Shown: one piece after another, positions 5,670-56,062 of the stretch
Layout: every line of letters starts with the position of its first letter
Numbering within the stretch: position 1 is the stretch's first letter
IMG/VR virus record: IMGVR_UViG_3300010233_000008
Source of the DNA: a virus
DNA: 64,000 nucleotides
Direction: 5' to 3' (one strand)
Position numbers and translations under genes: made by a program
The notes under the pieces: generated by a model
Databases searched by the model: none
Seen by the model: only the letters and a program-made list of their open reading frames with translations
Told to the model about the DNA's origin: nothing

Positions 5670-6491
5670 TTGAAGCAATCCGTTGGTCGCCATGTTCAGC
5701 AAATTCTCTGGTCCGCTATCGCCTCAACCTATACCGGGATAGTATCTTCTATAATTAAATATGGTAGAGGCTCGGATGATCATTGGCTGCATTTTCAAAA
5801 TCAATTAACTAAATGGTTGGGATGGGTAGATTTAACAAGTGCCTCTACTTTAAGATATAGAGCATTACCCGAACCAACCATAATCCCTGATAATACTACA
5901 GATTTAGTAACTATAGCTCACGAAAATCCATGGTATATGGATCACAGGTTATTAAGTCAAAGAATTATAGAATCTAGGGCTGCAACTATTAGGATGATTG
6001 AAGAGGGATCATTAAATAGAAATTCTCAAAAGATTTGGGAATTACATAGGGATCATGGAGATAAGGTAGTTCCAGCCTATAGATTAGAAAGACGTAGAAG
6101 AGAGGCTATTTCTTCTACGATGAATACGGCTGAACAAATCCAATTATCTATTCCTCATATTGGGGATCATTTCCCAATAGCTGGATATTTTACTAGAAAA
6201 GATGATAGAGTTAGATGTGCGCATTTACCAATGCACGGATTTTTGGCCTTGCGTTCTTGGAAACATTGGGGTATAATAGTTCCGCCAGCAGGATTTGGTT
6301 GTAGATGCTGGATTAGGCAGTTTGCTAGATTTGAATGTATAGATAAAGGATGGATAAGTAAAGAAGGGAAGCCAAAATTTGAAGTAAAATGGCCTAATAC
6401 TTTAGCTAGACTAAATTTTGAAAAAGGTGTTTTTCCCGAATTCAAATTTGAAAGACCTTGGGTATATCCGAATGAATCAAACTCAAACTAA
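5670..6491 (+). CDS. minor head / head morphogenesis protein, Mu F / SPP1 gp7 family (273 aa)
   Basis: C-terminal PAGFGCRCW matches the conserved HPNCRC-type motif of the Phage_Mu_F/SPP1 gp7 family; position after portal fits; TTG start per ORF track. Confidence 0.55.
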   Translation: MKQSVGRHVQQILWSAIASTYTGIVSSIIKYGRGSDDHWLHFQNQLTKWLGWVDLTSASTLRYRALPEPTIIPDNTTDLVTIAHENPWYMDHRLLSQRIIESRAATIRMIEEGSLNRNSQKIWELHRDHGDKVVPAYRLERRRREAISSTMNTAEQIQLSIPHIGDHFPIAGYFTRKDDRVRCAHLPMHGFLALRSWKHWGIIVPPAGFGCRCWIRQFARFECIDKGWISKEGKPKFEVKWPNTLARLNFEKGVFPEFKFERPWVYPNESNSN

Positions 6492-10092: not shown

Positions 10093-11349
10093 ATGCCTAC
10101 AATTTCTGGCCTTTCGGTTACTTCCACTCGTTTGGCTAATACTGCATTTTCTGCCACATTTTTCCCTCGCGTGATGCGTTCGGTGTGGCCACGAATTTGT
10201 GGTACTACTAAGTCAAGTGCGTCGGTTGAGCCGTTCGCTTTCATCGGTGCTTCTCCGTTGCTTAAACTGTTTCAGGGTAATGTCCCCGCTCAAGCAGTTC
10301 CCAGCTTTACTCTTAACGTTCCAAATCCTATTTGGAAAAATATTGAATTGTGGCGTCGGTCACAGTTTGAATTGGATCAGACTCGCGTTCTCTCGAAACG
10401 AGTTGGAATGCTTGGTGTTAAGGTTGCCCAGACTTGGGATTACCTTTTAGCTAATGTTATTCTCAATGGCTCTACTGCTGGTAGCCAAACCTTCCTTTAT
10501 CCGGAAGATGGTAATACCTATACGATGACATTTGATAATCAGCCGATTTTCAGTGCATCACATACCGTTACTTCCTTTAATGCTATTGGTGGTGGGAATG
10601 CTCCTACTTATTCCAATATTATTCAGGGCCATTTGCCGGTAGGAACTAGCAGTTTATTCGCTCAGGATGTTGGCGTTACTGCTACACAGTTGCAGAATGA
10701 CGTTCAGGCTATTATTCAGCGAATTTCTACTTGGGTTGATGATAAGGGTGCATTGATTTATCCGGATTTTGATCCGGCTCGTCAATTGGTTCTTGTTGTT
10801 CCTCCTCAGTTGTTTGCTGGTGCTGAACTTGCATTTAGGGTTCAGGGTGGATTGATTGGTGGTAGTTATCAGTCTAGCGCTGGTTCTTCGACCAATATTG
10901 GTTATAAGATGGTAAAAGATGTCATTAATTGGAATCTGTTAACCGGATGTCCAAACTTGACTTCAATTAGCCCAACCGCCACTGTTGGCCCTACTAATGT
11001 CAATGAATATTATGCTTTCATTGATGGAGATTATGTTCGTCCGTTCTATTTCCAGAGATTCATGCCTGTTAGACAGGGTGAAACTATGCCATTGGGTGAA
11101 GACCCGGCGGCACAGGCTGCTCGGATTATAGATCAGGCCAATACTAGCGGATTGTCGGTTACTCCGGAAGCTGCGGAAGTTTATGCGGCTACTGAAATCG
11201 ACTCGAACCTTGGCGCTCTTGGCGCTAATGCTCAGTATGATGTTGTGGCAAAGGAACAATTCTTTGTCTCTGCCCGTACTCGCGGAATGATCTTCCCCGG
11301 TCCATGGATGACCGCACTAAAAGTGGACCCAACCGGCACGTCCACCTAA
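10093..11349 (+). CDS. major capsid protein (418 aa)
   Basis: largest gene after protease-scaffold in head module; followed by a strong intrinsic terminator (high expression unit); no transmembrane or low-complexity regions. Confidence 0.55.
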   Translation: MPTISGLSVTSTRLANTAFSATFFPRVMRSVWPRICGTTKSSASVEPFAFIGASPLLKLFQGNVPAQAVPSFTLNVPNPIWKNIELWRRSQFELDQTRVLSKRVGMLGVKVAQTWDYLLANVILNGSTAGSQTFLYPEDGNTYTMTFDNQPIFSASHTVTSFNAIGGGNAPTYSNIIQGHLPVGTSSLFAQDVGVTATQLQNDVQAIIQRISTWVDDKGALIYPDFDPARQLVLVVPPQLFAGAELAFRVQGGLIGGSYQSSAGSSTNIGYKMVKDVINWNLLTGCPNLTSISPTATVGPTNVNEYYAFIDGDYVRPFYFQRFMPVRQGETMPLGEDPAAQAARIIDQANTSGLSVTPEAAEVYAATEIDSNLGALGANAQYDVVAKEQFFVSARTRGMIFPGPWMTALKVDPTGTST

Positions 11350-11371: not shown

Positions 11372-11412
11372 CCTCATTCACAATGAAATATTTGTGAATG
11401 AGGCTTTTATTC
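11372..11412 (+). terminator. rho-independent terminator after capsid gene
   Basis: perfect 12-bp stem CCTCATTCACAA/TTGTGAATGAGG (11372-11403), 8-nt loop, then CTTTTATTCT. Confidence 0.75.
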
Positions 11413-11414
11413 TC

Positions 11415-11442
11415 TTGACAAAATAAATCCCGATGATATCAT
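11415..11442 (+). promoter_or_regulatory. sigma70-like promoter TTGACA-16-TATCAT
   Basis: -35 11415-11420, -10 11437-11442; ATG 11451 lies ~8 nt downstream (leaderless configuration). Confidence 0.45.
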
Positions 11443-12416: not shown

Positions 12417-13253
12417 TTGGGCGCAATCCTAACTATAGCAAGTGCAACGCTTGCGATTGATGGCTTAACCCTAACTATCAATATGGCTGGGGTGTCTGGA
12501 AGTCTATCCCCATCATCTGGGGTTACGGGATTTACTGTATATAGTAGTGGAGTAGGAATAAATATTTCATCCGCTACTGCTGCTGGTAGTGCCGTAGTTT
12601 TAGTAGTCGATACTGTAATCCAAGCTAGTGCAATTTGTACTCTTTCATTAGCTTCCGGAACCGGCACTAATTTAGTAGATGATGCAGCAAATACCCCTAC
12701 CGGACAAAATGGATTTTTAGTTGTTAATAATTCTACGGCCAATCCTTATTGTTCAAAACAACAACTAATAATGTTATATGACGTTAGATCGGTTCTACAA
12801 CTATCTAACGACGTAAATTCTAGACAGGGAAATCAACCTAATATCCAATTTATATTGGATGTTCAGGCTGGAGAATTAGAGTCAGCTTTATATGGCAGAT
12901 ATGACTTACCTTCTGTTTGGGCAATGAATCCTATTCCCTTAATTCTTACTAAATATGTAGCTGCTACGGCGGCTGGTAGATTGTGGGGACGTAGATCAGA
13001 TAAACCTAAAGCTATTTCTGCTGATGAAGAGTGGGCAGAAAATTGGATTAAGGGAATAATGAATGGTTCTATGTCTATTCCCGGACTTGAACGTGAGGCT
13101 CAACCAGTTCTACAAGATTCTGACTTTATTAATGGTGTATCTCAATTTGATTGGGTATATGGAACCGCACCTTCCCCGACCGGACCATCTGGAAATCAAA
13201 CTGGTCCTCCATGCGTAAATCCTTCGACTCAATTTAATGGTTCTATTCCCTAG
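12417..13253 (+). CDS. DUF1320 (Mu gp36-like) head-tail connector protein with 118-aa low-complexity N-extension (278 aa; possible true start ATG 12771)
   Basis: residues ~119-175 (MLYDVRSVLQLSNDV...ELESALYGRYDLP) match DUF1320 N-terminal consensus; third-position A/T bias supports + strand over antisense ORF 12410..12742. Confidence 0.5.
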   Translation: MGAILTIASATLAIDGLTLTINMAGVSGSLSPSSGVTGFTVYSSGVGINISSATAAGSAVVLVVDTVIQASAICTLSLASGTGTNLVDDAANTPTGQNGFLVVNNSTANPYCSKQQLIMLYDVRSVLQLSNDVNSRQGNQPNIQFILDVQAGELESALYGRYDLPSVWAMNPIPLILTKYVAATAAGRLWGRRSDKPKAISADEEWAENWIKGIMNGSMSIPGLEREAQPVLQDSDFINGVSQFDWVYGTAPSPTGPSGNQTGPPCVNPSTQFNGSIP

Positions 13254-13278: not shown

Positions 13279-13938
13279 ATGGCAAAACATATCAACATTC
13301 CCAATACTAATTATTGGGTATTAGAAGGCGATAGCGCATTAACCAAGGCCGCATTAGAAAGTGGCAGATTAATTAATGAAACATCAATAGAAAATCTCGA
13401 TGAAGTTAAGGCGTTAAAATCGGGTGACGTTGTTTTGGATATAGGAGCTTTGGTTGGAGATACGGCTGAAATTTTTCTAAATCTTGGCTGTGAAGTTTAT
13501 GCTTTTGAGCCATATTTAGATGCGTTTGAATGTTTAGAACATAATTGTCCAAAAGCCAAAAATTATAATGTTGCGGTTGGAGATGGCAGGCAAATGGCTG
13601 CATTGGGAAAATTGGGCGAAGATGGCTCAAATTTTGGAACTAGGATGATGGAATTAAATCAGGGGCAACCATCATTTAGAATAGATGACTTAAATCTTGA
13701 CAAATGTGATTTTGCCAAAATTGATTGCGAGGGATGCGAGCCAATGGTTTTGGATGGAATGAAGAGAACACTGAAAAAGTTCAAGCCAAAATTATTGATA
13801 GAATGTTATGATACTCTATTAAAAAAACAAGGGTTTAGGCGTGAAGATATTTTGGTCCCACTTAAAGAATTGGGATATCAATATCGAGTAGCAATCGGAA
13901 TTGAAAGTAATGATCGTGTAGATTTACTTTTTTACTAA
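13279..13938 (+). CDS. FkbM-family SAM-dependent methyltransferase (219 aa)
   Basis: DIGALVGDTAEIF...GCEVYAFEP...NVAVGDG matches Methyltransf_21/FkbM signature. Confidence 0.65.
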   Translation: MAKHINIPNTNYWVLEGDSALTKAALESGRLINETSIENLDEVKALKSGDVVLDIGALVGDTAEIFLNLGCEVYAFEPYLDAFECLEHNCPKAKNYNVAVGDGRQMAALGKLGEDGSNFGTRMMELNQGQPSFRIDDLNLDKCDFAKIDCEGCEPMVLDGMKRTLKKFKPKLLIECYDTLLKKQGFRREDILVPLKELGYQYRVAIGIESNDRVDLLFY

Positions 13939-13939
13939 A

Positions 13940-14572
13940 ATGTCAGAAAAATTAAAATACGGTCCCGATTGTTTCGACTACAATTATTATAATTCCAATT
14001 TTTCGGAAGCAATGAGATATGATAGTATATCTCAACAACACGAGTTAAAATATAAATTTGATTTTATACAAGATTTTGGAATTACATATAATTCGATATT
14101 ATTTGTCGGGTGTGCGACCGGGAATGAACCAAGATATTTTAGGAATAATGGTAAAGATGCTCAGGGTTGCGATATAAGTAAATATGCAATCAGCCAAGCC
14201 GATTCATCCATTTCTTCTAATATAAGAGAATATGATGGCGAAAAAATATCTTGGCAAGAAGACAATTCTATAGACGTTGTTTGCGCCTTCGATGTTCTAA
14301 CTATTATACCAAAAGAACAAAGAGAAAAATTAATCTCTGAAATGATTAGGGTCGCGTCTAAATTGATAGTTATTAGAACTACATTAAAGGTTCCGGACGA
14401 CTTGACAGATAGTGAATTTGATGGTATAGATGGATACTTATTCAAGCTGGAAACTTTGGCATATTGGGATAATATTTTTACAGAAAATAAAAAGCTCTGG
14501 TTAAAAAAGGCAAAAATTTATTCCATCAAGCATAATCATCGTGAAGCTATAATCGGTTTTGAGAGAGAGTAA
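13940..14572 (+). CDS. class I SAM-dependent methyltransferase (210 aa)
   Basis: motif I ILFVGCATGNE, acidic motif II (QGCDIS) and motif III-like VVCAFDVL. Confidence 0.55.
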   Translation: MSEKLKYGPDCFDYNYYNSNFSEAMRYDSISQQHELKYKFDFIQDFGITYNSILFVGCATGNEPRYFRNNGKDAQGCDISKYAISQADSSISSNIREYDGEKISWQEDNSIDVVCAFDVLTIIPKEQREKLISEMIRVASKLIVIRTTLKVPDDLTDSEFDGIDGYLFKLETLAYWDNIFTENKKLWLKKAKIYSIKHNHREAIIGFERE

Positions 14573-16998
14573 TGGATAGGATCGCTATCATTCAGCTTTG
14601 CAGATTCGGAGATATAGTCTCAATTCTCCCGATTGCCAAATACTTATCAAAAGATAATGAAGTAACAATAATCTGTCATGAAGATTTTGCGGGAATACTT
14701 GATGCAGTTAGTTATGTAAAAGTACAAACATTAAGTACGCATCATAGGGATTTGGTTGGAGCGATTGCTAAGGCTAAATTAGAAGGATACGATCAAATAT
14801 TAGTTACTCAGAATATGGGTAACAATAATCGTATTCCTTATGAAACTGATAATTATCAATGTCAACAATGGGCAAGAGCCGGATTCCTAGATAAGTTTCA
14901 TGATCTACCTTTAATCTTCGATAAAAGAAATAAAGAATTTGAAAATAAAGCCCTAAAACTTTTCTTACCCAAAGAAGATGGACGCCCATTATTAGGCTAT
15001 TCCTTACATGGAATTAGTTCTATCTATCTAAGATGGAAGGAACAAGAAGATTGGATTAAAAAAACATTTGGCAAGACTCATAGATTGATGAATTTTGGCG
15101 ATATTTGTACGGGTCAAGTTCATAATCTTTTGGGATTAATTGAGAAGTGTGATAAGTTAATAAGTATCGACACACTTCATTTACACTTAGCTTATGCGAC
15201 GAATACTCCGACTATAGCTTTGGTTGACGATAATCCACAAAAAAGAAGTGAGCCAAGAAAACATTGGATAGAAAATGTAACCTATATTGAGAGTATTACC
15301 GATATAGGGCGAGAAAAAATAAGTAATGCAGTTTATGACAAACCAAAATTAGGACGATTTTCTAAATCTATTTTCGTTCCTAAACCCGAATCAGAAAATG
15401 ATAATCGGGTTGCCATAATTGAACTAGCTCGATATGGGGATATAGTTAATGTTTTACCTATAGCTTATGATCTCCATAAAAAAGGTAATGAAGTTCACTG
15501 GTTTGTTCATCCTAATTTTGCCGATATTTTAGAAGCCGTTTCTTATGTTAAGGTTCATAAATATGGAGGATCGGATAGGGATGTTCAGGGCACATCAGAT
15601 TATGCTAGAAAACTAGGATTTAAGCGAGTCTTAGAATTACAAGTTAATGGCAATAAATTACCTTCTCCGATTGAATGTGAAAATTTCATTACGCAAAGTT
15701 GGGCTAGAGGCGGATATTTAGATAAGTTTCACGAATTGCCTTTAGTGTTTGATGAAAGAAATATTGATTTTGAAAATGATGCGCAAAAGGGATTGCCATA
15801 TACCCACAAAAAGGAAACGATTGCCTATTCTCTTGAAAGTCATTCATCCCCAATGCCAGAAAATAAAAAATTTGAGCAATGGATAATCAAAGAATTTGGG
15901 GATAAATTTAATCTGTGGAATATTGGGATATTAAAGCTAAAAAAGCCTCAATATCTTATTGGTATGTTGGAAATTGCTGGTATATTGATTTCGGTTGATA
16001 CCCTTTCCCTTCACTTATCCTACGCAACTAATACTCCAGTAATCGCCCTCGCTCCCGACCATAACACTCAAAATTATAAAGAGCGTTATAAATGGTATCA
16101 AAGCGAACCAAGAAATAACTGGATTGAAAGAGTTACTTATACTGATGCCTTAGAGAAAAAAGGTCAAGACAAAATAATCGCTGCCGTAAATGGGAAAAGG
16201 GAATTTGGTAAACTTACTCGTTCATTTGAAAAGTTTAAGTTGGATCGAATAGTTCACGCCGTAGAATGGCATATCCCTCCCCAACAAGATGAAAGGCGTA
16301 GACTTTTATCCGCACATAAAACTTGGGAGTCAGCTAGAAATTCAGATAATTCTTGTAAATTAGTTATAGTTGATACGGATAAAGCTAAGCGAACAAGCAA
16401 AACAGAATTAGGAGATAATCGCACACTTCCTTTTCTCCATGATATAATTGAATCAGGAATAAAAGAGTGTCAGAAAAACGACATACTTCTTCTTACAAAT
16501 TCCGATATATGTTTAACTCCCGAAGTTTCTACAATAATTAGAGCTAAATTAGCTAAAGAACCATGCTGTTTTTCTCGAAGGATAGATGTTCAGAATGCGG
16601 ATATTCCTAAATCATTAAGAATGATTGCTGGAATAGAGCCTCATCCCGGAACCGATTTATTTGCTTTTAGAACTTCATGGTGGGAGAAAAGAAAGAAGGA
16701 TTTTCCTGATTTGCTTGCAGCTTGTGAGGGTTGGGATTTTGTATTTAGACATATAATGTTATGGGATAACCCGAAAGCAGAGATACAGCCACCAATTATT
16801 TATCATGAATTACACAGAGCATACTGGTATAGAGGAGACGTTATTAACTCAAACCCCGGACAAATCTACAATAGAGAACTCGGTAGAGAATGGGCAATCA
16901 AATACGGATATGATGACGCCCTTAATCCAGAATGCCAAGGTGGACTCTTCAAGCTCGACGGACATTTTAGTAGAAAAACTCCCACAAAAACTAGCTGA
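14572..16998 (+). CDS. three-domain glycosyltransferase: 2 x GT9 (heptosyltransferase-like) + C-terminal GT-A-like domain (808 aa)
   Basis: domain 1 IAIIQLCRFGDIVSILP ... SIDTLHLHLAYATNTPTIALV; domain 2 VAIIELARYGDIVNVLP ... SVDTLSLHLSYATNTPVIALA (GT9 N-terminal R.GD..P and C-terminal DTG.HLA.A...P motifs); third domain LVIVDTD...LLLTNSD. Confidence 0.7.
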   Translation: MDRIAIIQLCRFGDIVSILPIAKYLSKDNEVTIICHEDFAGILDAVSYVKVQTLSTHHRDLVGAIAKAKLEGYDQILVTQNMGNNNRIPYETDNYQCQQWARAGFLDKFHDLPLIFDKRNKEFENKALKLFLPKEDGRPLLGYSLHGISSIYLRWKEQEDWIKKTFGKTHRLMNFGDICTGQVHNLLGLIEKCDKLISIDTLHLHLAYATNTPTIALVDDNPQKRSEPRKHWIENVTYIESITDIGREKISNAVYDKPKLGRFSKSIFVPKPESENDNRVAIIELARYGDIVNVLPIAYDLHKKGNEVHWFVHPNFADILEAVSYVKVHKYGGSDRDVQGTSDYARKLGFKRVLELQVNGNKLPSPIECENFITQSWARGGYLDKFHELPLVFDERNIDFENDAQKGLPYTHKKETIAYSLESHSSPMPENKKFEQWIIKEFGDKFNLWNIGILKLKKPQYLIGMLEIAGILISVDTLSLHLSYATNTPVIALAPDHNTQNYKERYKWYQSEPRNNWIERVTYTDALEKKGQDKIIAAVNGKREFGKLTRSFEKFKLDRIVHAVEWHIPPQQDERRRLLSAHKTWESARNSDNSCKLVIVDTDKAKRTSKTELGDNRTLPFLHDIIESGIKECQKNDILLLTNSDICLTPEVSTIIRAKLAKEPCCFSRRIDVQNADIPKSLRMIAGIEPHPGTDLFAFRTSWWEKRKKDFPDLLAACEGWDFVFRHIMLWDNPKAEIQPPIIYHELHRAYWYRGDVINSNPGQIYNRELGREWAIKYGYDDALNPECQGGLFKLDGHFSRKTPTKTS

Positions 16999-17659
16999 AT
17001 CTCCATCTATAAATACTAACGGAGAATTCGCTGATGCTTTACGTCAAGTAATTAAGGAATACGATCCCAGACGACTTTTGGAAACTGGAACATTTGATGG
17101 GTTGGGATCAACCGCGATTATTTCAGAATCCATCAATCCTTTGGCTAGATTAATTACTATCGAATGTGATTTTAGTCTATACGCTAAAGCCGTAGCAAAC
17201 ACTAGAAAATTTGGACACAAAGTAGATTGTAGAAATGGATTATCTATTCCATCTTCAATGTTACCGACTAAAGATGAAATAGTTAAAATGCTAAGTGAAT
17301 GTCCAGATAATCTCAACAAGGATTATCCAGAAGTTCAAAATCTAGATGACTATGCCATTTATTATCTTGATGAAATGAAAAGAGATTTCAAAGAAGATGA
17401 TTTAATTAAGCAGATTGTCTCAAAAGTTTTTGGAGGAAAATTAGATTTTGCGATTTTAGATAGTGCCGGACATTTGGGGTGGTTGGAATTCGCTTGTCTA
17501 TTAAACTTCTTAGAATCTCCATGTATAATTGCTTTAGATGATGTGAATCATATTAAGCATTACAAGAGTATGGAAGCCATAAGAAGCTCAAAGGTATTTA
17601 CTATTTTAAATGAGGGGGACGAGAGATATGGGTGGGCTATTGCTAGATATGATCCTTAA
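16910..17659 (+). CDS. TylF/CmcI-like sugar O-methyltransferase (start uncertain; ORF track 16805)
   Basis: LETGTFDGLGSTAI resembles TylF/macrocin O-MTase Gly-rich SAM motif (ECGV.RGGS); ORF overlaps end of GT gene in another frame; ATG 16910 is first in-frame Met. Confidence 0.5.
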   Translation: MMTPLIQNAKVDSSSSTDILVEKLPQKLAESPSINTNGEFADALRQVIKEYDPRRLLETGTFDGLGSTAIISESINPLARLITIECDFSLYAKAVANTRKFGHKVDCRNGLSIPSSMLPTKDEIVKMLSECPDNLNKDYPEVQNLDDYAIYYLDEMKRDFKEDDLIKQIVSKVFGGKLDFAILDSAGHLGWLEFACLLNFLESPCIIALDDVNHIKHYKSMEAIRSSKVFTILNEGDERYGWAIARYDP

Positions 17660-19359: not shown

Positions 19360-22300
19360 ATGTCAAAATTAGACGACTTAAAACAAAAATTAAATAAAAA
19401 CAAACCGAAAAGGATGAAATTCGCCGGTCTTTCGGTCATAATCGAAAATCCCGTAGACAGTATAAGAAAAGGTGTAAATTCTAAAGGAAAAAGTTGGGCT
19501 ACTCGTCTTAGCCATCCTTATGGGTATCTGGAAAAAGGAGTCGGTGCGGACGGAGAACAATTGGATTGCTTTTTGGGTAATCATCCAGAAGCAAAAGATG
19601 TTTATATCGTGCATCAGAATTCGTTGGACGGCAAGTATGATGAGGATAAATGTCTGCTAGCATTCCCTTCCGCCGAAGAGGCAAAGAAAGCATACTTATC
19701 CAATTACGACACCTCCGATTATTTTCGATCAATGACAACTATTCCGATGAATAGTTTCAAGAAAATGCTTACTACCGAAAAACCCGGAAGCATTAAATGG
19801 ACTAGAAAGCAAAGAAGGAATCACAAATCGGAAGCGATGTTTTCAACCAATACCGAAAATTTTGATGCCGACACGAAAGAAAAATGGTTGACAATTGGCG
19901 GTCACTCTGGACCAGAAGGTAAGCATGAAGGCGGATCACATATAGAAATTTCTGGTGATGGAGATATTGAAAAAGGTCCACCCGATCTAAAAAATAAACC
20001 GATTAGTGACCTAAAATCTAAAATGTCTTCCAAAATTACTCCCGGTGTTCCCCAAATAAATTCCCCCAAGCCATCTTCCGCTCCCGCACCCAAAATAATT
20101 CCTAATTCCCAATACGATCTTAAAACCGGCAAGCAAATTAATTCCCAACCTACTCCTCAAAAGGTAGAAGCTAAGCCAATTCAACCTCCAGTCGAACATC
20201 CATTTTTCGATAAAAAAATAAATGATGTTGCCAAAACGGATCAGGATAACGACAAATGGTGGACCAAACCCAATCAAGTAAGCGACCCCAATAAATTAAA
20301 TCCAGTTCAGCAAGGACAAAAAAATATTGCTAACGATAAAGAATCGCAATCAGCAATGAAAAATTCGCATGATTTGAAAAATTTCGGTTGGGGGAAGATG
20401 GCTCAAGCTGGAAATGCTAATGCGGATAAAATAAATAATTTGGCTGCACAAAAAGGCATAACGGCGAATCAAGCCCAAAGTCAATTATCCCAAAATATTT
20501 CTCCCCAATTAGCTCAACAAAATTTACCTAATAAAAATGCTAGTGGAATTCCGGGGTCATCCCCGATTAATCAATCTCAGGATAATCCTACTCCTAGTTC
20601 AGTAAATCCCCCACAGGAGCAATTGCAACCTAATGTCGGTGCGCCAAAAGGACCAATAAACGATAAGCCTACAAATAAATCTCCCGAATCTTCATTATTC
20701 TATCCTCCCGGCAAATTCTTTCCGCCCTCCGAATCTAAAGCTCCAGTTAATGCTCCGCAAGTTCCTCCACAAGAATTATTAAGTGATAAACCTATGTCTG
20801 GAGTTCAGCGAATTACTCCCGATGATTTTGCTAAAGGATGGGATGGAATAGAAGGTTGGGTTGGAGCTAGAGATAATCCCGAACATGCTGAAAATATAGC
20901 TAAGGGATTAAATCAATTAGGTGATAGAGAGCATGCCGTAATGCAACATTCTAATGGCAAACATATAGTTGTTAGTAGACCAAAACAAGGTCAAGCGAAC
21001 CAAGGTTTAGGTCAGAATCAACTTAGTCAAACTCCCCCAGAACAAATTCAGCCTAATACCCAAATTCCTAATGAAGAAATGCAAGAGCAATTAGGATCAA
21101 CTGGTGCGGCAACTCCCGCCATCAATAATCCTAATGAAATAAAACAGCAAGAAAATAAACCCGCTTCGCAAGAGCCATTATTTGATAATCCAAAAACTCC
21201 ATCACAAGAACCGTTACCAGAGGAACCAGAACAAAAATTAGGTGGAGTTCAAGATTATAGTAAAGCCTCAATTGAACGCCAATTATTAGATCATTATCAA
21301 AAGAATGGTGGAAATGCTGACGATCAAGATGAAAAATTAACCTCAGCTTATCATTCCCCATTTACTTTTAGACGAACAAGTAAAACTAAATCAGGATTTC
21401 CCGGTGAAATAGATAGGATGCTAGAAGGTCCGAACGGTAAAAAATTAAGAAGGCTTTTAAGTCTAACCGATAATCCAGAATCTTCTCAAGGTGCGGATTT
21501 AATGGGAGATTTAGGGGTAGATGGATATGAGCAATTACTTAATAGAAAATTAGGTGGCAAGAAAAATACTACATTAAATTCCGCATTAGATTTTGCCAAG
21601 AAATCTGGCGATCCGCAAATGGAATTCTTGGCTAAGCTTCATAGTATAACTCCCGATAGGCAAGATAAGAAGCCACAAGAGGTTATAAATACTCAGGCAT
21701 TACAAACTGGCGAAGCTGCGACTATTCATGGTATTCCTGTTACTATTAATGAGGATGAAAATGGGAATAAATCTATAGATGATGGTGGACATTTGCCGAG
21801 CGTTCCGTTAGAATCTATGAAACAATTACCTATTGATAAGGGTAGTTTACATAATACGGAAGAGCCGGAAGTTGATGAAAGTCCATTTGCTCCCGATGAA
21901 TTAAATCCAGAGGAATTAAATGAAAAAACGGATGAAGAAAGTCAGCCCGAACCAAGTCAAGAAAATGCTCCGGTTGAGTCTTCCCAAGATAATTCTGGAC
22001 AAGAAAATGGAATTGACTCTGGAATTGGAGAAGAAAATCCAGAAATTAATAAAGATGAGCAAGGGAATCGACCCGATACAAATGTTAATCCCACAACGGA
22101 ATCTCCCGAAATTAATCCAAGCAATCAAATCGGGAAAAGTGAAGGGGAAAATAGGGATAGTGAATCTAAGCCTCAATCAATTCCTCCAATTAAATCAAAT
22201 AAATTAGAGGAAAAACCAAATGAAAAAATCCCCGAAAAAGAAAAGTCAAAAGCTGTCCCGCAACATTCAGAAACTACTAATGAATCCCATAAAGATTTGG

Positions 22301-23349
22301 GCAAAGAAAAACAAAATGTCGGTTCGTCTGATTCAAAAGAAAAAGTAAATGAAAGTCCGAAAGATAAACCAGCCCCACAGTCTCCGGTCACTTCTAATCC
22401 ACCGGCTAAAAATGAAGTTAAAGAAGAAAATCCCAAAGCTTCCGCGCAAATTCATCCTCCCTATAAACATCCATTAAGAGATATCTACGAAAAAGCTAAT
22501 CCGAGATCGCAACAAGCGTCTAAAGAGGCAAATAAAAGCGGAAATAAAGTAAATATTCAGGAATCCGGAATTCAGGCTCGCGGATCGGCAATGGGTTTGC
22601 ATGGAGCTAAAAAGCGTGAAGATGCAATCAATAACGCTATAAAACAATATGGTCCTACCGAAAAAGCAATGCAAGTTGCCGTTGCCAATAGTTATAGACA
22701 ACCATTAAGTAAATCAGAAAAACAATATTTTAAGGATTATGCGGAGTCTTTAGCCAAGAGCAAAAACCCTTCAACATCCGTTGAAACTCCCCCAAATAAT
22801 GAAACTGCAAAATCTCCCACTACATCAGAAATACCGGAAGTCGATAACACAAAACAACTAGGCTTATACGAAAAAGATAAATCTGGTAATCCCAAAGAAG
22901 TAGGAGAAAAACCCGGACAATCCAATTTATTCAACCCCAATAAATTTAAGACAGAAGAAAAACCCAAAGAAGAAAAAGTCGCCCCTCAATTTGACCCAAA
23001 ACATACACAAGAAATGTTCCCCAATAAGGAACAATCGAAACCTATAGATCAATTAAAAGAAAAGATGAATCCAGACAAGAATCCCGTCAAAATGTCGGGA
23101 TCGCCAATTGACCAATTAAAAGATAAAATGCAGAAAAATAAGGGGTCTGGATATGATATTAATGAAGACGATGGATATATAGAAATTAAGCGAAATGGAC
23201 AAACAATTGCGACCGGAACTAGACAGCCAAATGGCAAAATAGGGGATTTACAATATAAACATCCTGTACACCAAAAGTTAGATGCTATAAGAAATGCCGT
23301 GCAACGCGCAATTAATGAACACGAGAAAAATCCACCTAGTCTAAAATAA
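19360..23349 (+). CDS. giant protein: inorganic-pyrophosphatase-like N-terminal domain + ~1200-aa intrinsically disordered P/Q/N/K/E-rich region (1329 aa)
   Basis: N-domain SVIIENP..., SHPYGYL, GADGEQLDCFLG, DGKYDEDKCLLAFP align with family I PPase motifs (VVIEIP, YP.NYGYI, DGDP.DVLV, DEAGEDAKLVAVP); remainder low-complexity with short tandem repeats (PIDQLKEKM/PIDQLKDKM). Confidence 0.6.
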   Translation: MSKLDDLKQKLNKNKPKRMKFAGLSVIIENPVDSIRKGVNSKGKSWATRLSHPYGYLEKGVGADGEQLDCFLGNHPEAKDVYIVHQNSLDGKYDEDKCLLAFPSAEEAKKAYLSNYDTSDYFRSMTTIPMNSFKKMLTTEKPGSIKWTRKQRRNHKSEAMFSTNTENFDADTKEKWLTIGGHSGPEGKHEGGSHIEISGDGDIEKGPPDLKNKPISDLKSKMSSKITPGVPQINSPKPSSAPAPKIIPNSQYDLKTGKQINSQPTPQKVEAKPIQPPVEHPFFDKKINDVAKTDQDNDKWWTKPNQVSDPNKLNPVQQGQKNIANDKESQSAMKNSHDLKNFGWGKMAQAGNANADKINNLAAQKGITANQAQSQLSQNISPQLAQQNLPNKNASGIPGSSPINQSQDNPTPSSVNPPQEQLQPNVGAPKGPINDKPTNKSPESSLFYPPGKFFPPSESKAPVNAPQVPPQELLSDKPMSGVQRITPDDFAKGWDGIEGWVGARDNPEHAENIAKGLNQLGDREHAVMQHSNGKHIVVSRPKQGQANQGLGQNQLSQTPPEQIQPNTQIPNEEMQEQLGSTGAATPAINNPNEIKQQENKPASQEPLFDNPKTPSQEPLPEEPEQKLGGVQDYSKASIERQLLDHYQKNGGNADDQDEKLTSAYHSPFTFRRTSKTKSGFPGEIDRMLEGPNGKKLRRLLSLTDNPESSQGADLMGDLGVDGYEQLLNRKLGGKKNTTLNSALDFAKKSGDPQMEFLAKLHSITPDRQDKKPQEVINTQALQTGEAATIHGIPVTINEDENGNKSIDDGGHLPSVPLESMKQLPIDKGSLHNTEEPEVDESPFAPDELNPEELNEKTDEESQPEPSQENAPVESSQDNSGQENGIDSGIGEENPEINKDEQGNRPDTNVNPTTESPEINPSNQIGKSEGENRDSESKPQSIPPIKSNKLEEKPNEKIPEKEKSKAVPQHSETTNESHKDLGKEKQNVGSSDSKEKVNESPKDKPAPQSPVTSNPPAKNEVKEENPKASAQIHPPYKHPLRDIYEKANPRSQQASKEANKSGNKVNIQESGIQARGSAMGLHGAKKREDAINNAIKQYGPTEKAMQVAVANSYRQPLSKSEKQYFKDYAESLAKSKNPSTSVETPPNNETAKSPTTSEIPEVDNTKQLGLYEKDKSGNPKEVGEKPGQSNLFNPNKFKTEEKPKEEKVAPQFDPKHTQEMFPNKEQSKPIDQLKEKMNPDKNPVKMSGSPIDQLKDKMQKNKGSGYDINEDDGYIEIKRNGQTIATGTRQPNGKIGDLQYKHPVHQKLDAIRNAVQRAINEHEKNPPSLK

Positions 23350-24484: not shown

Positions 24485-24847
24485 GTGAAGAAAAAGAATT
24501 ATTATATTAAAAAGGGTTATGTTAAGAATTGCACCGATCCCAAGATAGAGTTATATGAATCTGGATTTAGGGCAATGTGTTTTCATGTCGCCTATAATCA
24601 TTTTTATCATTTAGTTGCTGACAATACTTTAAGGTTTGCATATGCTTTATGCCATTCTTCACTTCCCATTAAAGATAGGGAGACCGTTGAGGCGTGGTAT
24701 AAATGGAGCAAGGGAAAAACCATCAAAGAAATGATGAATCACGGTCACGAAATCCCTAAATCACTAAAACCTATCGTTAATTCTTATTTTTCAGCTATTA
24801 AGAAAAGAGCTAAAGAGAATAAAGAAGATGTGAATTATTTGTTATGA
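24485..24847 (+). CDS. hypothetical protein (120 aa, GTG start per ORF track)
   Basis: ORF preceding GT-sulfotransferase gene with 4-nt overlap. Confidence 0.4.
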   Translation: MKKKNYYIKKGYVKNCTDPKIELYESGFRAMCFHVAYNHFYHLVADNTLRFAYALCHSSLPIKDRETVEAWYKWSKGKTIKEMMNHGHEIPKSLKPIVNSYFSAIKKRAKENKEDVNYLL

Positions 24848-26190
24848 ACCCGACAATTTGCTTCGTTACTACTTGCAAAAATCGCGCAAATCATATTAAG
24901 GAATGCTTGCCCGCGAATCTGGCAGACAATACCGATCCAAATCATAAATTCATCCTTTTAGATTATAATAGTCAAGATGATCTTATTGATTATCTTAAAT
25001 CTAATCATCAAAAAGATATAAATTCAGGGAGATTAGTAGTTTATAGTTTTAAGAGTCACGGACCATTTAGAATGGCTCATGCCAAAAATATGGCACACCG
25101 TTTAGGTATTCTAGAGGGCGGCAACATATTAGTTAATCTTGATGCTGATAATTTTACTGGTAAGGAATTTTCGACTTATATTCAGGAAAAATTTAAGCAA
25201 GATAATATATTCTTATGGGCAAAAAGGATTATAGGTCAAGCTCATACTAGAGGAACCTCTGGGCGTATCGGGGTATCTTCTAAATCCTTTATTCTGGCTG
25301 GAGGATACGATGAAAAGTATAATACTTGGTCTCCTGACGACAAAGACTTCAACGCTAGATTATGTCGCTTAGATTTTGTTCCTATTGAGATTGATCCTAA
25401 ATTCTTAAAAGCTAAAGTTCATAACGACAATATTAGATTTTCAGAGTATAAACATATTGATCTTGACGAACAAGAAGAAGAATCATTAAGAATCGGAGAT
25501 TCCGATCATACCATAGCTAATTTTGGCAGGATCGGATGTGGTACGGTTTATAAGAATTTCTCTAATGAACCAATAAATATAGACCCAATTCCAACTAGAA
25601 TATTTGGGATAGGGATGCACAAGACAGCGACCACTTCCCTAAATAAAGCATTTAAGATTTTAGGTTATCATTCCGCACATTGGAAATCTCCGCAATGGGC
25701 TAGAAATATTTGGGATGAAATACATAAATTTGGTAAATCCAGAACATTAGAAAAATATTATGCGCTATGCGATTTACCTATCACCTTACTCTATCAATCA
25801 TTGGATATAGCTTATCCCGGAAGTAAATTCATTCTTACTATCAGGGATGAAAATCAATGGCTGGAAAGCGTTAAGAATCATTGGGATTATGATCTAAATA
25901 TTTATAGAGAGAGTTGGGATAATGATGCCTTTACGCATAGAGTTCACAGTGAATTATATGGTAGGAAAATGTTCGATGTGGAAATTTTTATCAAGAGATT
26001 TCGTAGGCATAATGATGAAGTAAGAAATTATTTTAAAAATCGTCCACAAGATTTACTTGTTTTGGATATAGATAAAAAAGATAAGTGGGGAAAACTTTGT
26101 CCATTTTTGAATGTGGGAATACTGAATATTTCTTATCCGGAAGAGTTCAATACGGATAAAAGGGTAAAATTTTTAGCAGAAAATATTTAA
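24844..26190 (+). CDS. fusion protein: GT-A glycosyltransferase (DXD) + sulfotransferase domain (448 aa)
   Basis: N-half ICFVTTCKNR...LVNLDADNF (GT-A/GT2-like DXD); C-half GMHKTATTSL (5'-PSB PKSGTT-like, catalytic Lys) and ILTIRDENQWLESV (3'-PB RD...S motif) of PAPS sulfotransferases. Confidence 0.55.
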   Translation: MNPTICFVTTCKNRANHIKECLPANLADNTDPNHKFILLDYNSQDDLIDYLKSNHQKDINSGRLVVYSFKSHGPFRMAHAKNMAHRLGILEGGNILVNLDADNFTGKEFSTYIQEKFKQDNIFLWAKRIIGQAHTRGTSGRIGVSSKSFILAGGYDEKYNTWSPDDKDFNARLCRLDFVPIEIDPKFLKAKVHNDNIRFSEYKHIDLDEQEEESLRIGDSDHTIANFGRIGCGTVYKNFSNEPINIDPIPTRIFGIGMHKTATTSLNKAFKILGYHSAHWKSPQWARNIWDEIHKFGKSRTLEKYYALCDLPITLLYQSLDIAYPGSKFILTIRDENQWLESVKNHWDYDLNIYRESWDNDAFTHRVHSELYGRKMFDVEIFIKRFRRHNDEVRNYFKNRPQDLLVLDIDKKDKWGKLCPFLNVGILNISYPEEFNTDKRVKFLAENI

Positions 26191-44753: not shown

Positions 44754-46577
44754 ATGAAAATAAATTGCAAAAACTTTTCTGAATGTAATCGGAACGATGG
44801 TGGATGTTGCGCCATTTCCGATAAATCAGGTAGCAAATTACCTTCTTATGGATATTGCCAAATCTGTAAAGTTAGAGACCCAATTAATTCAGATATCAAA
44901 TCCCCACTTTTAGAAGAAGTAAAAAAGATAGAACCAAAGCCCATGCCAAAATGCGGAAAATGCCAACGCAAGGAATCTTCCCGACAAACTCAAAAAAAAA
45001 CTGAACCTTATGAAGTAGTTATTAAATGCCATCAATCTCCCGGCGATATTACTTTACTTCATGGAGCAATTAGAGAAGTACAAAAAGCATATCCCGGAAA
45101 ATTTAGATTTTCCCCAGATACTCATTTTAACGATCTATTTTATAATTCACCTTGGGTAATTAATAGAGAACATCTTAAAGACCCAATAACTATTGAATCT
45201 GGTCAATGTTGGAGTTGGGCAAACCAAAGATCGGATCATTTAGTTCAGGAATTTACCAGATCATTAATTGGACAATTAAATGATAAATTGAAATTAGATT
45301 TGAAAGTTCCGTATATGACGGAATTTAGGGGGTGTTTGATATTAAGTGAAGAGGAAAAGAATAGGGATGTAACGGATATAATTGGGGAATATGATAGCTA
45401 TTTTTTGATAGATGCCGGATGGAAAAGTAACGATTACGATGTAAAGCGTGCCCCAACAGAGACTTATCAACAAGTGGTTGATGGGTTATTGGGGAAAGTA
45501 AAATTTGTACAAATGGGCCGAAATGATCCAAATGCTCCGGACAGACACCCCCCACTTAAAAACGTAATAAATGCAATAGGATTAACTGAAAACCGTCGAG
45601 ATTTTCTTAGATTGGTTTATAGATCATCCGGGGTGATTACTCCGATTAGTTGGCCACTTCATGCAAGCGCTGCCATACCGATGCACTCTAATCCAAACAA
45701 GTTAAGACCATGTGTGGTTCTTGCTGGTGGTAGAGAACCAGTTTCAATGATCCAATATCCGGGGCATAGCGTTTTAAGCATGGTGGGAAAATTAGACTGC
45801 TGCCTTAACGGTGGCTGCTTCAAAACATCCATAGGTCATAAGCCTAATGATATGAAGGGAGTTTCAGATGAGAGATGCTTAAGGCCGGAAAATGGAATAG
45901 CTAAGTGCATGAGGATGATAACCGCACCGCAAATAATTTCCGCCGTTGAAAGCTATTTAGTTCCTCCAGAAAAGCCAAAAATCTGTATAGCAAGCATTGC
46001 AACAAATGACATGAGGGAGTTGAGGGATTTAACTTTCCCAAATAAAAAGCAATATGCAGAAAAACACAATTATGGGTTTGTCGGATGGGAAGATGTTTTC
46101 CACGAAAAAGATAAGCAAGATCGCCCCGCTTCGTGGAGCAAACTACCATTAATCCTTCAATTATTTTCTGAATATAATTGGATATTTTGGTCCGATGCTG
46201 ACTCTGTAATTACAAATATGGATAAGAAGATCGAAGATTTTATTGATAACGATTACGACTTGATAATTGCAGCAGATAGGAACGGGCGAAACTGCGGACA
46301 GTTTTTAATAAAGTCAAGTCAGCAAAGTTGGGATTTTCTACGTCGGGCATGGGAACAAACAGAATTTATAAATGACGGGTGCTGGGAGCAAAGTGCGATA
46401 GGGAAATTGTTAAGAGAAAATCCAAATCAAATTAGAGAAAAAATTGTACCTCAAAATTGGTTCAATTCTTATCCTGACATTTGGAATAAGAATGATTTTT
46501 TACTTCATGCTCCAAGGGATGATCGTTGGAATCGAATTGATCCTCTAAAAAATGCTTTGAATGGAGAGAAAATATGA
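44754..46577 (+). CDS. Zn-ribbon + GT9 heptosyltransferase-like + GT-A (DXD, GT34-like) glycosyltransferase (607 aa)
   Basis: N-term Cys clusters (CKNFSECN..CC, CQICK, KCGKCQ); VVIKCHQSPGDITLLHGAIREVQKAYP and GVITPISWPLHASAAIPM (GT9 motifs); C-domain SWSKLPLIL...WIFWSDADSVITN (GMA12/MNN10-like DXD). Confidence 0.6.
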   Translation: MKINCKNFSECNRNDGGCCAISDKSGSKLPSYGYCQICKVRDPINSDIKSPLLEEVKKIEPKPMPKCGKCQRKESSRQTQKKTEPYEVVIKCHQSPGDITLLHGAIREVQKAYPGKFRFSPDTHFNDLFYNSPWVINREHLKDPITIESGQCWSWANQRSDHLVQEFTRSLIGQLNDKLKLDLKVPYMTEFRGCLILSEEEKNRDVTDIIGEYDSYFLIDAGWKSNDYDVKRAPTETYQQVVDGLLGKVKFVQMGRNDPNAPDRHPPLKNVINAIGLTENRRDFLRLVYRSSGVITPISWPLHASAAIPMHSNPNKLRPCVVLAGGREPVSMIQYPGHSVLSMVGKLDCCLNGGCFKTSIGHKPNDMKGVSDERCLRPENGIAKCMRMITAPQIISAVESYLVPPEKPKICIASIATNDMRELRDLTFPNKKQYAEKHNYGFVGWEDVFHEKDKQDRPASWSKLPLILQLFSEYNWIFWSDADSVITNMDKKIEDFIDNDYDLIIAADRNGRNCGQFLIKSSQQSWDFLRRAWEQTEFINDGCWEQSAIGKLLRENPNQIREKIVPQNWFNSYPDIWNKNDFLLHAPRDDRWNRIDPLKNALNGEKI

Positions 46578-46771
46578 CTACCTTTACCTCAACTTCTTAC
46601 GCAAATTCCCACAGCGAATCCATTCAAGAGTCATATTTTAATCCTTGGACTAATTTCCAAACCTATCAAGAGCCAAACAAAGATAAATCAATTTGCACTT
46701 GCTCTAAACAGGAATTAATGGTTGCGGGATGTAATTGTGGGCATATTAAAAGATATTCGGAGAAAAGGTGA
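46574..46771 (+). CDS. hypothetical Cys-containing protein (65 aa)
   Basis: ATGA-coupled small ORF. Confidence 0.35.
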   Translation: MTTFTSTSYANSHSESIQESYFNPWTNFQTYQEPNKDKSICTCSKQELMVAGCNCGHIKRYSEKR

Positions 46772-47484
46772 TAGGTAAACGACCTAAACGAAATCCTCCA
46801 GCAATAAGATTAAATAGACCAGTAGGGAAAAGAGTAGAAATTACACAGCCAAAAATAATTCATCATAAAATAATTGAACCAAAAAAACCAAAAGAAATAA
46901 TTAAAGAAATACCCATAGAAAAAATTAAATTATCTCCACAACAAATAAAAGAAAATTGCCTAAAAACATTGCAGCAATTATATGACGAAAGGCATGGGGA
47001 ATGCGATAAGGGGGCCAAGCATAGTTACATAAGTCTATACGAAAAAATATTAGAACCTTTCAGGAATATTCCAGTCACATTTGTCGAGCTTGGTATATTT
47101 TCTGGATGGTCACTAGATTTGTGGTCAAGATATTTTATTGATGAAAACACAAAAATAATTGGTGTGGATATTTCGCCATCAATTGACAACAAAACCATTT
47201 CAGATATTCGCCAACAAATTATTATTGGAAACTGTACAGACCCATCAACATTTGAATCAATTGATAAAATTGATATCGTAATTGACGATGCGAGCCACAC
47301 ATTAAAAGATCAAACAGAATCATTCAATTTATTATTTCCACTCCTAAATATTGGCGGAATATATTGTATTGAAGATATCCAAAATGAGAGCAATAAAAAT
47401 GAATTGCTGTTGCTTTTTCCGTTTGAAGTTCATGCTTTTAATAAATGTTCAGACGATACTATTTTAATTGCAAGAAAAACTTGA
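46768..47484 (+). CDS. TylF/CmcI-like class I methyltransferase (238 aa)
   Basis: FVELGIFSGWSLDLW...IIGVDIS...VIDDASH pattern of the macrocin O-MTase / cephalosporin hydroxylase-like SAM fold. Confidence 0.5.
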   Translation: MIGKRPKRNPPAIRLNRPVGKRVEITQPKIIHHKIIEPKKPKEIIKEIPIEKIKLSPQQIKENCLKTLQQLYDERHGECDKGAKHSYISLYEKILEPFRNIPVTFVELGIFSGWSLDLWSRYFIDENTKIIGVDISPSIDNKTISDIRQQIIIGNCTDPSTFESIDKIDIVIDDASHTLKDQTESFNLLFPLLNIGGIYCIEDIQNESNKNELLLLFPFEVHAFNKCSDDTILIARKT

Positions 47485-47516: not shown

Positions 47517-47789
47517 ATGAAAAAACAACCCCCTCAAACTTATCAACCCGAACCCCCAAAATTTCCTCCAGCCCAATTTAAAATGCCTCCCAATCCCATC
47601 CTTCCAGTATTATGGTCTGATACTTTAGATGTTCAATACGATCAGCAAAACGCATTACTTAGGTTTTCAGCTACAGTTGAAGGCCATAAAATCGAAGTAG
47701 CGAGAGTTCAAACTTCATTGGATCATGTCAAGAAAATGGTAGATATGTTTTGCAATGCCCTTAATTATTATCCGACTAAACCCGAATGA
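47517..47789 (+). CDS. hypothetical Pro-rich protein (90 aa)
   Basis: ORF downstream of consensus promoter. Confidence 0.45.
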   Translation: MKKQPPQTYQPEPPKFPPAQFKMPPNPILPVLWSDTLDVQYDQQNALLRFSATVEGHKIEVARVQTSLDHVKKMVDMFCNALNYYPTKPE

Positions 47790-48950: not shown

Positions 48951-49051
48951 AAATTACCTTATTGCCGGAAATAGGATTTGCACCTATACGCTCCGAAGAG
49001 CAAATCATTTTAAATGATTCTTGTCTGCTAATTTCAACATTCCGGCTTAAT

Positions 49052-55543: not shown

Positions 55544-55703
55544 ACGACATTACAAATTTATTTTCAGATTCTAATTCGGGAATCAACTGAAAATTTTCGT
55601 TTAGAAAAACTATAGAAAATTGTTGGCCACTATTAGTAAATATTGTTGCCAATTTTTCTAGATCGCTTCCAATCGGAATAAGAACACGTTCTTTCTTTTT
55701 CAC
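55491..55703 (-). CDS. hypothetical protein (70 aa)
   Basis: compact operon member. Confidence 0.35.
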   Translation of the reverse strand: MKKKERVLIPIGSDLEKLATIFTNSGQQFSIVFLNENFQLIPELESENKFVMSFGENGNFECYERNNQRK

Positions 55704-56062
55704 TTTTTGCCTTTTGTTAATTTTCTAATTACTTCTGCACATTTACCTTTACTTGGTCTATCGTCTATTAATCTACCTAATTCTTTAGCGTCTAAAAGTA
55801 TTGCCGTATTAGCCCTTATGTGAGCAAAATGATGATATCCGCTTTGTTTATCAATATCTTCTCCATCCAAATAAGAATCTAAATGTCTTTTTATCGCATC
55901 GCAATAGACCGTAGCCGATACATTAGATTTTCGCCAATTAAACTCGCCGTAAATTTTTGCACTATCTTCTAATACTTTGGCTTCATAATAATTGGCCACA
56001 GGAGGAGTAAAATGACAACTAGGTTTGGTTCTACCTATTGCGTCTTTGGGATTACCTTTCAT
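55700..56062 (-). CDS. hypothetical protein (120 aa)
   Basis: compact operon member. Confidence 0.4.
   Translation of the reverse strand: MKGNPKDAIGRTKPSCHFTPPVANYYEAKVLEDSAKIYGEFNWRKSNVSATVYCDAIKRHLDSYLDGEDIDKQSGYHHFAHIRANTAILLDAKELGRLIDDRPSKGKCAEVIRKLTKGKK

Follow-up and report, generated by a model that had tools for sequence, protein, structure and literature searches.

A phage gene for a three-module glycosyltransferase

We analyzed a 64,000-nucleotide stretch of the virus record IMGVR_UViG_3300010233_000008 from IMG/VR (hereafter, the window) and focus here on a gene for a glycosyltransferase (GT) of three modules and on the cassette of genes to which it belongs. The window comes from an uncultured tailed phage with a Mu-like head, and the cassette is a tight same-strand block in which the genes for an FkbM-family methyltransferase, a class I S-adenosylmethionine (SAM) methyltransferase, the transferase and a protein weakly resembling catechol-O-methyltransferase (COMT) follow one another (Table 1). 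The open reading frame (ORF) of the transferase starts with ATG and encodes 808 amino acids (aa), with precisely the boundaries given in a first-pass annotation that had been made from the sequence alone. That annotation had described two GT9 domains in tandem followed by a GT-A-like domain, and the layout of two GT-B units and one GT-A unit is borne out by the sequence, the AlphaFold model and the fold search. Both motifs on which it relied are indeed present in each repeat: R-x-GD spans residues 11-14 and 287-290, while (I/V)DT..LHL.YATNTP spans residues 199-213 and 475-489. When residues 1-275 were compared with residues 276-808 by BLASTP, the two parts were 45% identical over 276 columns with an E value of 9e-69, which is far beyond chance, and the tandem repeat of a ~270-aa unit is therefore real. 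The possibility that the duplication is a sequencing or assembly artefact, which the annotation had itself raised, is ruled out by the divergence of the copies and by an independent homolog. The nucleotide identity between the two copies is only 55%, the same codon is used at only 55 of their 126 identical amino acids, and the longest DNA repeat between them is 89 nucleotides at 78%. The homolog, P0002 (806 aa, 86% identical), is a separate entry with its own JGI contig and has the identical three-part layout. The 808-aa transferase, in which no transmembrane segment was found, is encoded by the phage, soluble and made up of three glycosyltransferase modules. The full-length AlphaFold model has a predicted local distance difference test score (pLDDT) of 90 and a predicted template modeling score (pTM) of 0.54; the low pTM, together with the disordered linker between the two repeats, suggests that the modules fold independently.

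The repeated modules resemble GT9 enzymes from a distance

The repeats had been taken for heptosyltransferases in the first-pass annotation, and this identity could not be established. PF01075 (Glyco_transf_9) is the sole Pfam match of the transferase, with 30.7 bits for the whole protein against a cut-off of 22 bits. The match consists of two partial stretches that cover only positions 175-228 of the 247 positions of the profile, which is the C-terminal part with the sugar site, and the copies scored singly give 20.4 and 13.6 bits, under the cut-off. None of the NCBIfam equivalog cut-offs for heptosyltransferases I, II and III was reached, with scores of 51.6 against 185.3 bits for TIGR02193 (heptosyltransferase I), 21.7 against 170.2 for TIGR02201 and 18 against 467 for PRK10422.

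The predicted structure places the repeats nearer to GT9. In the AlphaFold model, each repeat is a compact GT-B unit made of a four-strand N-lobe and a Rossmann C-lobe, and GT9 structures lead the Foldseek search against the PDB (3tov, 9e-9; TibC, 9e-7; WaaC, 1e-6; WaaF, 2e-6), with GT1-type structures lower. The family profile also matched WaaC, WaaF and 3tov weakly among the PDB sequences. In this profile alignment, the G-D of the family falls on G12-D13 of WaaC and its D-T-x-x-x-H-L falls on D261..H266 of WaaC; we take WaaC D13 to be the catalytic aspartate and D261..H266 to be the sugar-binding motif. The corresponding residues are present in both copies (D14, D200 and H205 in module 1; D290, D476 and H481 in module 2). 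To score conservation, 41 GT9-like domains from the family were aligned, and both copies of the window protein retain every column that is at least 85% conserved, among them G-D and H, which are invariant, and the D of the D-T motif, which is nearly so. Judging from the sequence, all three modules look catalytically intact. The GT9-like modules behave like remote GT9 members: the fold and the catalytic motifs are present, the family model is reached by a narrow margin only, and the equivalog models are not reached.

Comparison with the best structural matches, WaaC/HepI and WaaF/HepII (PDB 2gt1, 1psw and 3tov; E values from 9e-9 to 2e-6), shows what separates them from the window modules. The GT-B fold is common to both, but the sequence identity is only 13-14%, the window domains have ~265 aa while the known enzymes have 320-350 aa, the N-lobe is shortened to four strands, and a K-x-W-P-type nucleotide motif is not evident. 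Moreover, the window gene is phage-encoded, tandem-duplicated and fused to a GT-A module, and the acceptor-side N-lobes of its two GT9-like modules are slightly acidic, with net charges of -3 and -1. TibC, which ranks third among the solved-structure matches (E value of 9e-7), belongs to the TibC/AAH autotransporter heptosyltransferases, which have a GT9-related GT-B core with a reduced four-strand N-lobe and glycosylate protein serines in the cytoplasm; TibC O-heptosylates proteins directly (PMC4358343). These protein heptosyltransferases are defined by an N-terminal beta-barrel, a thumb that is a beta-hairpin, and an iron finger of four cysteines (PMC4358343), none of which is present in the window protein. 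Module 1 has strand 1 and the G-D motif (residues 13-14) at its very start, its cysteines are at 10, 35, 97, 179 and 193, module 2 has a single cysteine at 369 and a cysteine-free C-lobe, and no Cys4 cluster is formed. Membership in the TibC/AAH group was therefore rejected.

The third module and the overall layout

Module 3 is predicted with confidence to have a Rossmann-like GT-A fold. No Pfam family matches residues 554-808 even at E values up to 10, and no GT2-type model of Pfam or NCBIfam matches the module, so that in the model its similarity to GT-A enzymes is at the fold level only. The residues conserved in the family are T-N-x-D (N643, D645), D624, G-x-D-L-F-A-F (D695) and H-x-x-H (H745, H748). 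Two stretches had been singled out before; 'LVIVDTD' is not conserved in the family, and 'TNSD' is the conserved T-N-x-D. Located after the fourth strand, where the D-x-D motif for metal and nucleotide binding would be expected, it has the form N-x-D (T-N643-S-D645) and may bind metal; it is near-invariant in the family, as are H745 and H748.

Two GT9-like domains followed by a GT-A domain were found neither in solved structures nor among cultured-phage genes nor in the literature searched, in keeping with the earlier remark that the architecture was unfamiliar among characterized heptosyltransferases. Literature searches on tandem or bifunctional GT9 enzymes and on the combination of FkbM, GT and capsid genes in phages returned nothing relevant, no PHROGs family matches the transferase, and in a fold search of a viral library the matches, to viral GT9-like and multi-GT proteins, were all generic. 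Multi-domain viral and bacterial transferases as such are well known. For example, the chondroitin polymerase K4CP, LARGE1 and KpsC-type proteins also have at least two active sites in one chain that add different sugars in turn, and K4CP and LARGE1 occur among the fold matches of the window protein. Such proteins polymerize by alternating addition and have either two GT-A domains or two domains of an identical family, whereas the window protein has two GT-B units and one GT-A unit and nothing in it suggests polymerization. The 'processive' assembly that had been proposed for it was an analogy only, and stepwise addition by three active sites fits multi-domain transferases better. Thus, the architecture of the first-pass annotation stands, its heptosyltransferase identity and processive assembly are not established, and the phage context had gone unnoticed in it.

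Family members and the origin of the second copy

An exhaustive HMMER search returned 1,432 cluster representatives (clusters at 50% identity) at E values ≤1e-3 and 326 at ≤1e-30, all from metagenomes; a word-indexed search found 37 relatives. We examined the architecture of 168 proteins, denoting the GT9-like domain by G, this GT-A domain by A and any other segment of more than 120 aa by x. The standard form GA accounts for 85 of them, followed by xGA (35), Gx (14), GAx (8), the permuted AG (5), GGA (2, the window protein and its 86% homolog), xGGA (1) and GG (1). Three modules in one protein are common in the family, where about a third of the 168 members carry an extra module, but doubling of the GT9-like domain is rare (4 of 168). 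By Pfam, the extra segments are GT2, GT4/GT1, canonical GT9, GT34, GT17, GT21, GH130, Stealth, sulfotransferase, methyltransferase and radical SAM domains. Almost all the fusion partners of the family core are glycan-building or glycan-tailoring domains, as expected of a variable glycan-assembly line. The core domains are reversed, with the GT-A domain before the GT9-like domain, in five relatives (P0054, P0063, P0074, P0103 and P0146), which points to independent fusions or domain shuffling.

A recent tandem duplication in place was rejected as the origin of the second copy. In a neighbor-joining tree, modules 1 and 2 were sisters in 0 of 100 bootstraps, and module 2 clustered with the single GT9-like domains of P0003 and P0004; modules 2 and 3 of the window protein are together 52% identical to these two proteins. 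The second copy therefore comes from an old duplication or from a fusion of diverged paralogs. Between the window protein and P0002, module 1 is 77% identical, module 2 94% and module 3 87%, and the extra GT9-like copy may be under relaxed or diversifying selection. Another relative, P0008, no longer has several of the conserved residues in its extra N-terminal copy.

The cassette keeps its place among the head genes

The stop codon of the class I methyltransferase gene overlaps the start codon of the transferase gene in the sequence TAATG, suggesting co-translation, and the two genes are probably translationally coupled. The next gene, for the 249-aa COMT-like protein, lacks a start codon downstream of the transferase stop; with its best candidates, ATG codons at 16910 or 16913, it overlaps the 3' end of the transferase gene by 86-89 nucleotides in another frame. 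Its conservation with the homolog in the related lineage L001 starts exactly at the transferase stop. Upstream, a strong terminator-like hairpin with a 12-bp stem (11372-11403) lies directly 3' of the capsid gene, and a promoter-like site follows it within 11372-11442 on the plus strand (TTGACA, 16 nucleotides, TATCAT, with a TG), near consensus and identified by consensus match only. The hairpin and this site may delimit a transcription unit that holds the cassette.

In six lineages, the window and five others, the family gene directly follows the capsid and adaptor genes, and the recurring order is capsid, adaptor, family transferase, usually FkbM, and then a giant protein with an InPase domain. 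The FkbM gene stands beside the transferase gene, and the transferase gene before the giant InPase gene, in the window and in four of the other five lineages; L019 has neither an FkbM nor an InPase gene. Where measured, the capsid proteins of the related lineages are 42-55% identical to that of the window. Scans of viral and metagenome loci gave 3 and 4 loci, mostly from the same lineages. The downstream edge of the cassette in the relatives is given by the giant polyvalent protein, of which 1179 aa are of low complexity in the window (59% K/P/N/E/S/Q/T). The relatives' giant proteins have 875-4212 aa and carry topoisomerase, helicase or other domains instead. The adaptor of the window has an N-terminal extension of ~110 aa with 38% Ser/Thr/Gly. 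Its size is 278 aa in the window, 255 aa in L001 and 151-166 aa in L004 and L010; the ORF opens with TTG and the true start is uncertain. The content of the cassette turns over, and its position stays fixed. Among the relatives (L004, 12754-13521; L006, 11024-11704; L017, 5150-5941; and the protein P0029), small SPASM or radical SAM proteins recur in the cassettes, and other cassette genes encode a PAPS-reductase-like protein, GT17, a short-chain dehydrogenase and GH130 fusions.

Neither the transferase nor the capsid protein has a relative in 50,697 cultured-phage records (tblastn), and the portal protein matches cultured phages at only 22-23%. A pattern-based scan of limited sensitivity over 185,579 species-representative genomes likewise gave no relative of the transferase or of the capsid protein.

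Table 1 Features of the window discussed in the text
Feature	Position	Strand	Remarks
Mu-type portal	1650-3233		
Mu F-like protein	5670-6491		
Mu gpT-like major capsid protein	10093..11349	+	Candidate acceptor
Mu gp36-like head-tail adaptor	12417..13253	+	278 aa; directly upstream of the cassette
FkbM-family methyltransferase, likely sugar O-methyltransferase	13279..13938	+	PF05050 E 5e-14; TIGR01444 E 6e-21; recurs beside the transferase in relatives
Class I SAM methyltransferase	13940..14572	+	Methyltransf_11 E 1e-10; weak match to a pseudaminic-acid-associated methylase
Three-module glycosyltransferase	14572..16998	+	ATG start; 808 aa
Module 1, compact GT9-like GT-B	14572..15363	+	Residues 1-264; putative catalytic Asp14; sugar-site motif D200-T-x-x-x-H205
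Disordered linker between the GT9-like modules	15364..15396	+	Residues 265-275; pLDDT <50
Module 2, second GT9-like GT-B	15397..16218	+	Residues 276-549; D290, D476, H481
Module 3, GT-A, GT2-like	16231..16995	+	Residues 554-808; conserved D624, T-N643-S-D645, D695, H745, H748
Conserved protein, weakly COMT-type class I methyltransferase-like	16910..17659	+	249 aa; 41% identical to its syntenic counterpart in L001; phmmer against the PDB gives COMT at E 0.006
Giant polyvalent protein	19360..23349	+	1329 aa; InPase domain at residues 14-137, E 2e-36
GT2-sulfotransferase fusion	24844..26190	+	448 aa; Sulfotransfer_4 at residues 252-433, E 8e-30; GT2 at ~7-203, E 6e-4 and 3e-6
tRNA genes Thr-TGT, Gly-TCC, Leu-TAA	27782-27994; 48963-49046	+; -	
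Protein with C-terminal GT34-type GT-A domain	44754..46577	+	607 aa; PF05637 E 2e-20; N-terminal 420 aa unassigned
Methyltransf_24 methyltransferase	46768..47484	+	Adjoins the GT34 gene
Dual-specificity protein phosphatase	47786-48193	+	E 6e-17; near the late/early gene-block switch
DUF4326 protein	51209-51541	-	Near the late/early gene-block switch
SPFH/Band 7 protein	51538-52422	-	Near the late/early gene-block switch
MazZ-like dATP/dGTP diphosphohydrolase N-terminal domain	55700..56062	-	PF18909 E 7e-23

Glycan genes make up ~13% of the window. They encode at least 5 GT domains, 4 methyltransferases and 1 sulfotransferase and all share a strand with the structural genes; primase-like and helicase-like genes lie on the opposite strand. 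The GT2-sulfotransferase fusion is a hint of possible sulfation of the phage glycan; for the 273-aa ORF next to it (26190-27011), no match was obtained. The GT34 gene directly follows four large tail-like ORFs (35050-44744), and its product could be a virion-associated transferase or part of a second glycan cassette. MazZ-like enzymes accompany purine replacement in the DNA of other phages, and a PurZ-like gene was not seen in the scanned ORFs of the window. The same ORFs contain no integrase, thymidylate-synthase-like protein, 5-methylpyrimidine dioxygenase (5mYOX) or cytosine methyltransferase; such negatives cover the 64 kb of the window, and ~8 kb of the 72-kb contig lies outside it.

What the enzyme may act on

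The transferase is very probably a multi-module glycan-assembly enzyme. In the likeliest further reading, for which we see an even chance, its acceptor is a virion protein on which a methylated glycan is built stepwise. This reading draws on the tight linkage to methyltransferase genes, the conserved place in the head module and the glycan enzymes among the fusion partners of the family. We infer that the modules would act one after the other in the host cytoplasm, each transferring a single sugar from a nucleotide sugar, that the neighboring methyltransferases would then O-methylate and so cap the product, and that the acceptor would be a virion protein made at the same time, namely the major capsid protein, the adaptor or a packaged giant protein. 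The outcome would be a particle that bears a methylated glycan coat. The lack of any relative in the pattern-based scan of the 185,579 genomes and of an integrase among the scanned ORFs of the window argues against a role in lysogenic conversion.

There are precedents for this proposal, among them the direct O-heptosylation of proteins by the GT9-related TibC. To our knowledge, glycans on phage particles are documented in a few cases only, mainly in mycobacteriophages, and these virion glycans alter antibody recognition of the particle. According to the summary of Freeman et al. 2023 in PMC11256854, virions of the mycobacteriophages Che8 and Rita are glycosylated by phage-encoded transferases, which decorate the major capsid proteins. 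The same summary places their transferase genes near the right end of the genome, while the window gene is in the head module; those phages have Actinobacteria as hosts, and their proteins are unrelated to the window protein, for which tblastn found nothing in the phage records. The best functional analogy is with the chlorovirus PBCV-1, whose A064R and A111/114R are virus-encoded and soluble, carry three transferase domains in one chain and act sequentially on the capsid glycan (PMC9614988). A064R has two GT domains and a methyltransferase, and builds and methylates the terminus of the capsid glycan, which a separate methyltransferase, A061L, completes (PMC9614988). However, PBCV-1 is a eukaryotic giant virus, its A064R consists of a GT-A domain, a novel GT and a methyltransferase, its acceptor is an N-linked glycan on Vp54, and its enzymes are built from other domain families and have no detectable sequence relationship to the window protein.

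Several observations weigh against a virion acceptor. The enzyme is linked to virion proteins by its gene context, and shared ancestry rather than function may explain the conserved gene order. Not all members keep to that order, since the member in L006/L009/L016 (107-kb contig) has no capsid homolog within 10 kb and has FkbM, SPASM and GT17 genes nearby, and L017 has a distant GT2-G-A member in a different type of phage, between a giant polyvalent protein and the terminase and still in a glycan cassette. The C-terminus of the capsid protein is conserved, with no obvious extension specific to glycosylation. The beta-barrel and the iron finger of TibC, which represents the known protein-heptosylating family, are missing from the transferase, and canonical GT9 enzymes act on lipopolysaccharide, not on protein. 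Finally, pattern-based scans for the host with the transferase and capsid alignments found no genome that would point to the available donor sugars.

If GT9 chemistry is followed to its usual substrate, the transferase would remodel the host envelope, modifying the lipopolysaccharide core, the O-antigen or another surface glycan and thereby blocking superinfection or the re-adsorption of progeny to debris. WaaC and WaaF are among the closest solved structures, in sequence the enzyme weakly matches heptosyltransferases I and III and RfaQ, and surface glycan modification by temperate phages is well established. We nevertheless consider this function unlikely, because no integrase or lysogeny gene is among the scanned ORFs, no prophage copy was found in the representative genomes within the limits of the pattern-based scan, the gene lies among head genes and not at an attachment site or a moron position, and the enzyme has no membrane segment. 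The acidic acceptor lobes also fit the anionic Kdo2-lipid A poorly, which is weak evidence. The acceptor could instead be a small molecule, a glycolipid or a modified peptide made during infection. The radical SAM/SPASM proteins, short-chain dehydrogenases and GH130 phosphorylase fusions of some relatives are also found as natural-product or peptide-modification enzymes, but the cassette has no evident gene for a precursor peptide, a lipid carrier enzyme or an exporter and the consistent neighbors are structural genes, which makes such an acceptor rather improbable.

Glycosylation of modified DNA bases to evade restriction, as in T4 and metagenomic phages, appears very unlikely to us. Phage GT-A and GT-B enzymes do decorate 5-hydroxymethylcytosine with single or multiple sugars, heptose among them, so that multi-sugar and heptose-adding DNA systems are known (bioRxiv 10.1101/2023.12.21.572611); the MazZ-like gene hints at a non-canonical nucleotide metabolism, and needed genes could sit in the part of the contig outside the window. 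However, the known systems cluster with thymidylate-synthase-like, 5mYOX or C5-methyltransferase genes, none of which is among the scanned ORFs, and the cassette, in the head module, is separated from the replication genes by ~40 kb and has methyltransferases of the sugar type (FkbM) as partners, and the top structural neighbors are GT9 enzymes and not the T4 beta-glucosyltransferase. A different doubt concerns the number of active modules and can be combined with any of these acceptors, against which it was not scored: one GT9-like copy might be a non-catalytic scaffold, an acceptor-binding domain or the partner in a pseudo-dimer. The lower conservation of module 1 than of modules 2 and 3 against P0002 and the decayed extra copy of P0008 would agree with this, but both window copies retain all the residues conserved at 85% or more, including the putative catalytic aspartate and the D-T...H motif, and we regard it as improbable that only two modules are active.

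Implications for uncultured phages

The whole uncharacterized phage family of 'GT9-like + GT-A' proteins, with its cassette in the head module, is more interesting than the duplication itself. Tentatively, and with less confidence than in a virion acceptor for the window enzyme, we suggest that the 'GT9-like + GT-A' unit could be the core of a widespread virion-glycosylation system in uncultured, apparently mostly soil, tailed phages, that the compact GT9-like module could be a new class of cytoplasmic protein O-glycosyltransferase, and that interchangeable modules might diversify a methylated or sulfated capsid coat. Such extra modules would include, in the window protein, the second copy of the GT9-like domain and, in other members, GT2, GT4, GT34, sulfotransferase or radical SAM domains, and the window protein would be a natural case of specificity expansion via domain duplication.

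If the target is lipopolysaccharide or DNA, the function would be a more ordinary one of host takeover or anti-restriction. The doubled-domain variant offers a direct test of how the duplication of a domain lengthens a glycan chain by one sugar. Compact, soluble and naturally fused transferase modules for glyco-engineering would be a further yield of the family, which would extend GT9-type chemistry past lipopolysaccharide and autotransporters. If the cassette decorates virions, capsid glycosylation would be common and modular in a large clade of uncultured phages, one with more than 1,400 sequence clusters and no cultured representative, by means of enzymes unrelated to those of the mycobacteriophages.

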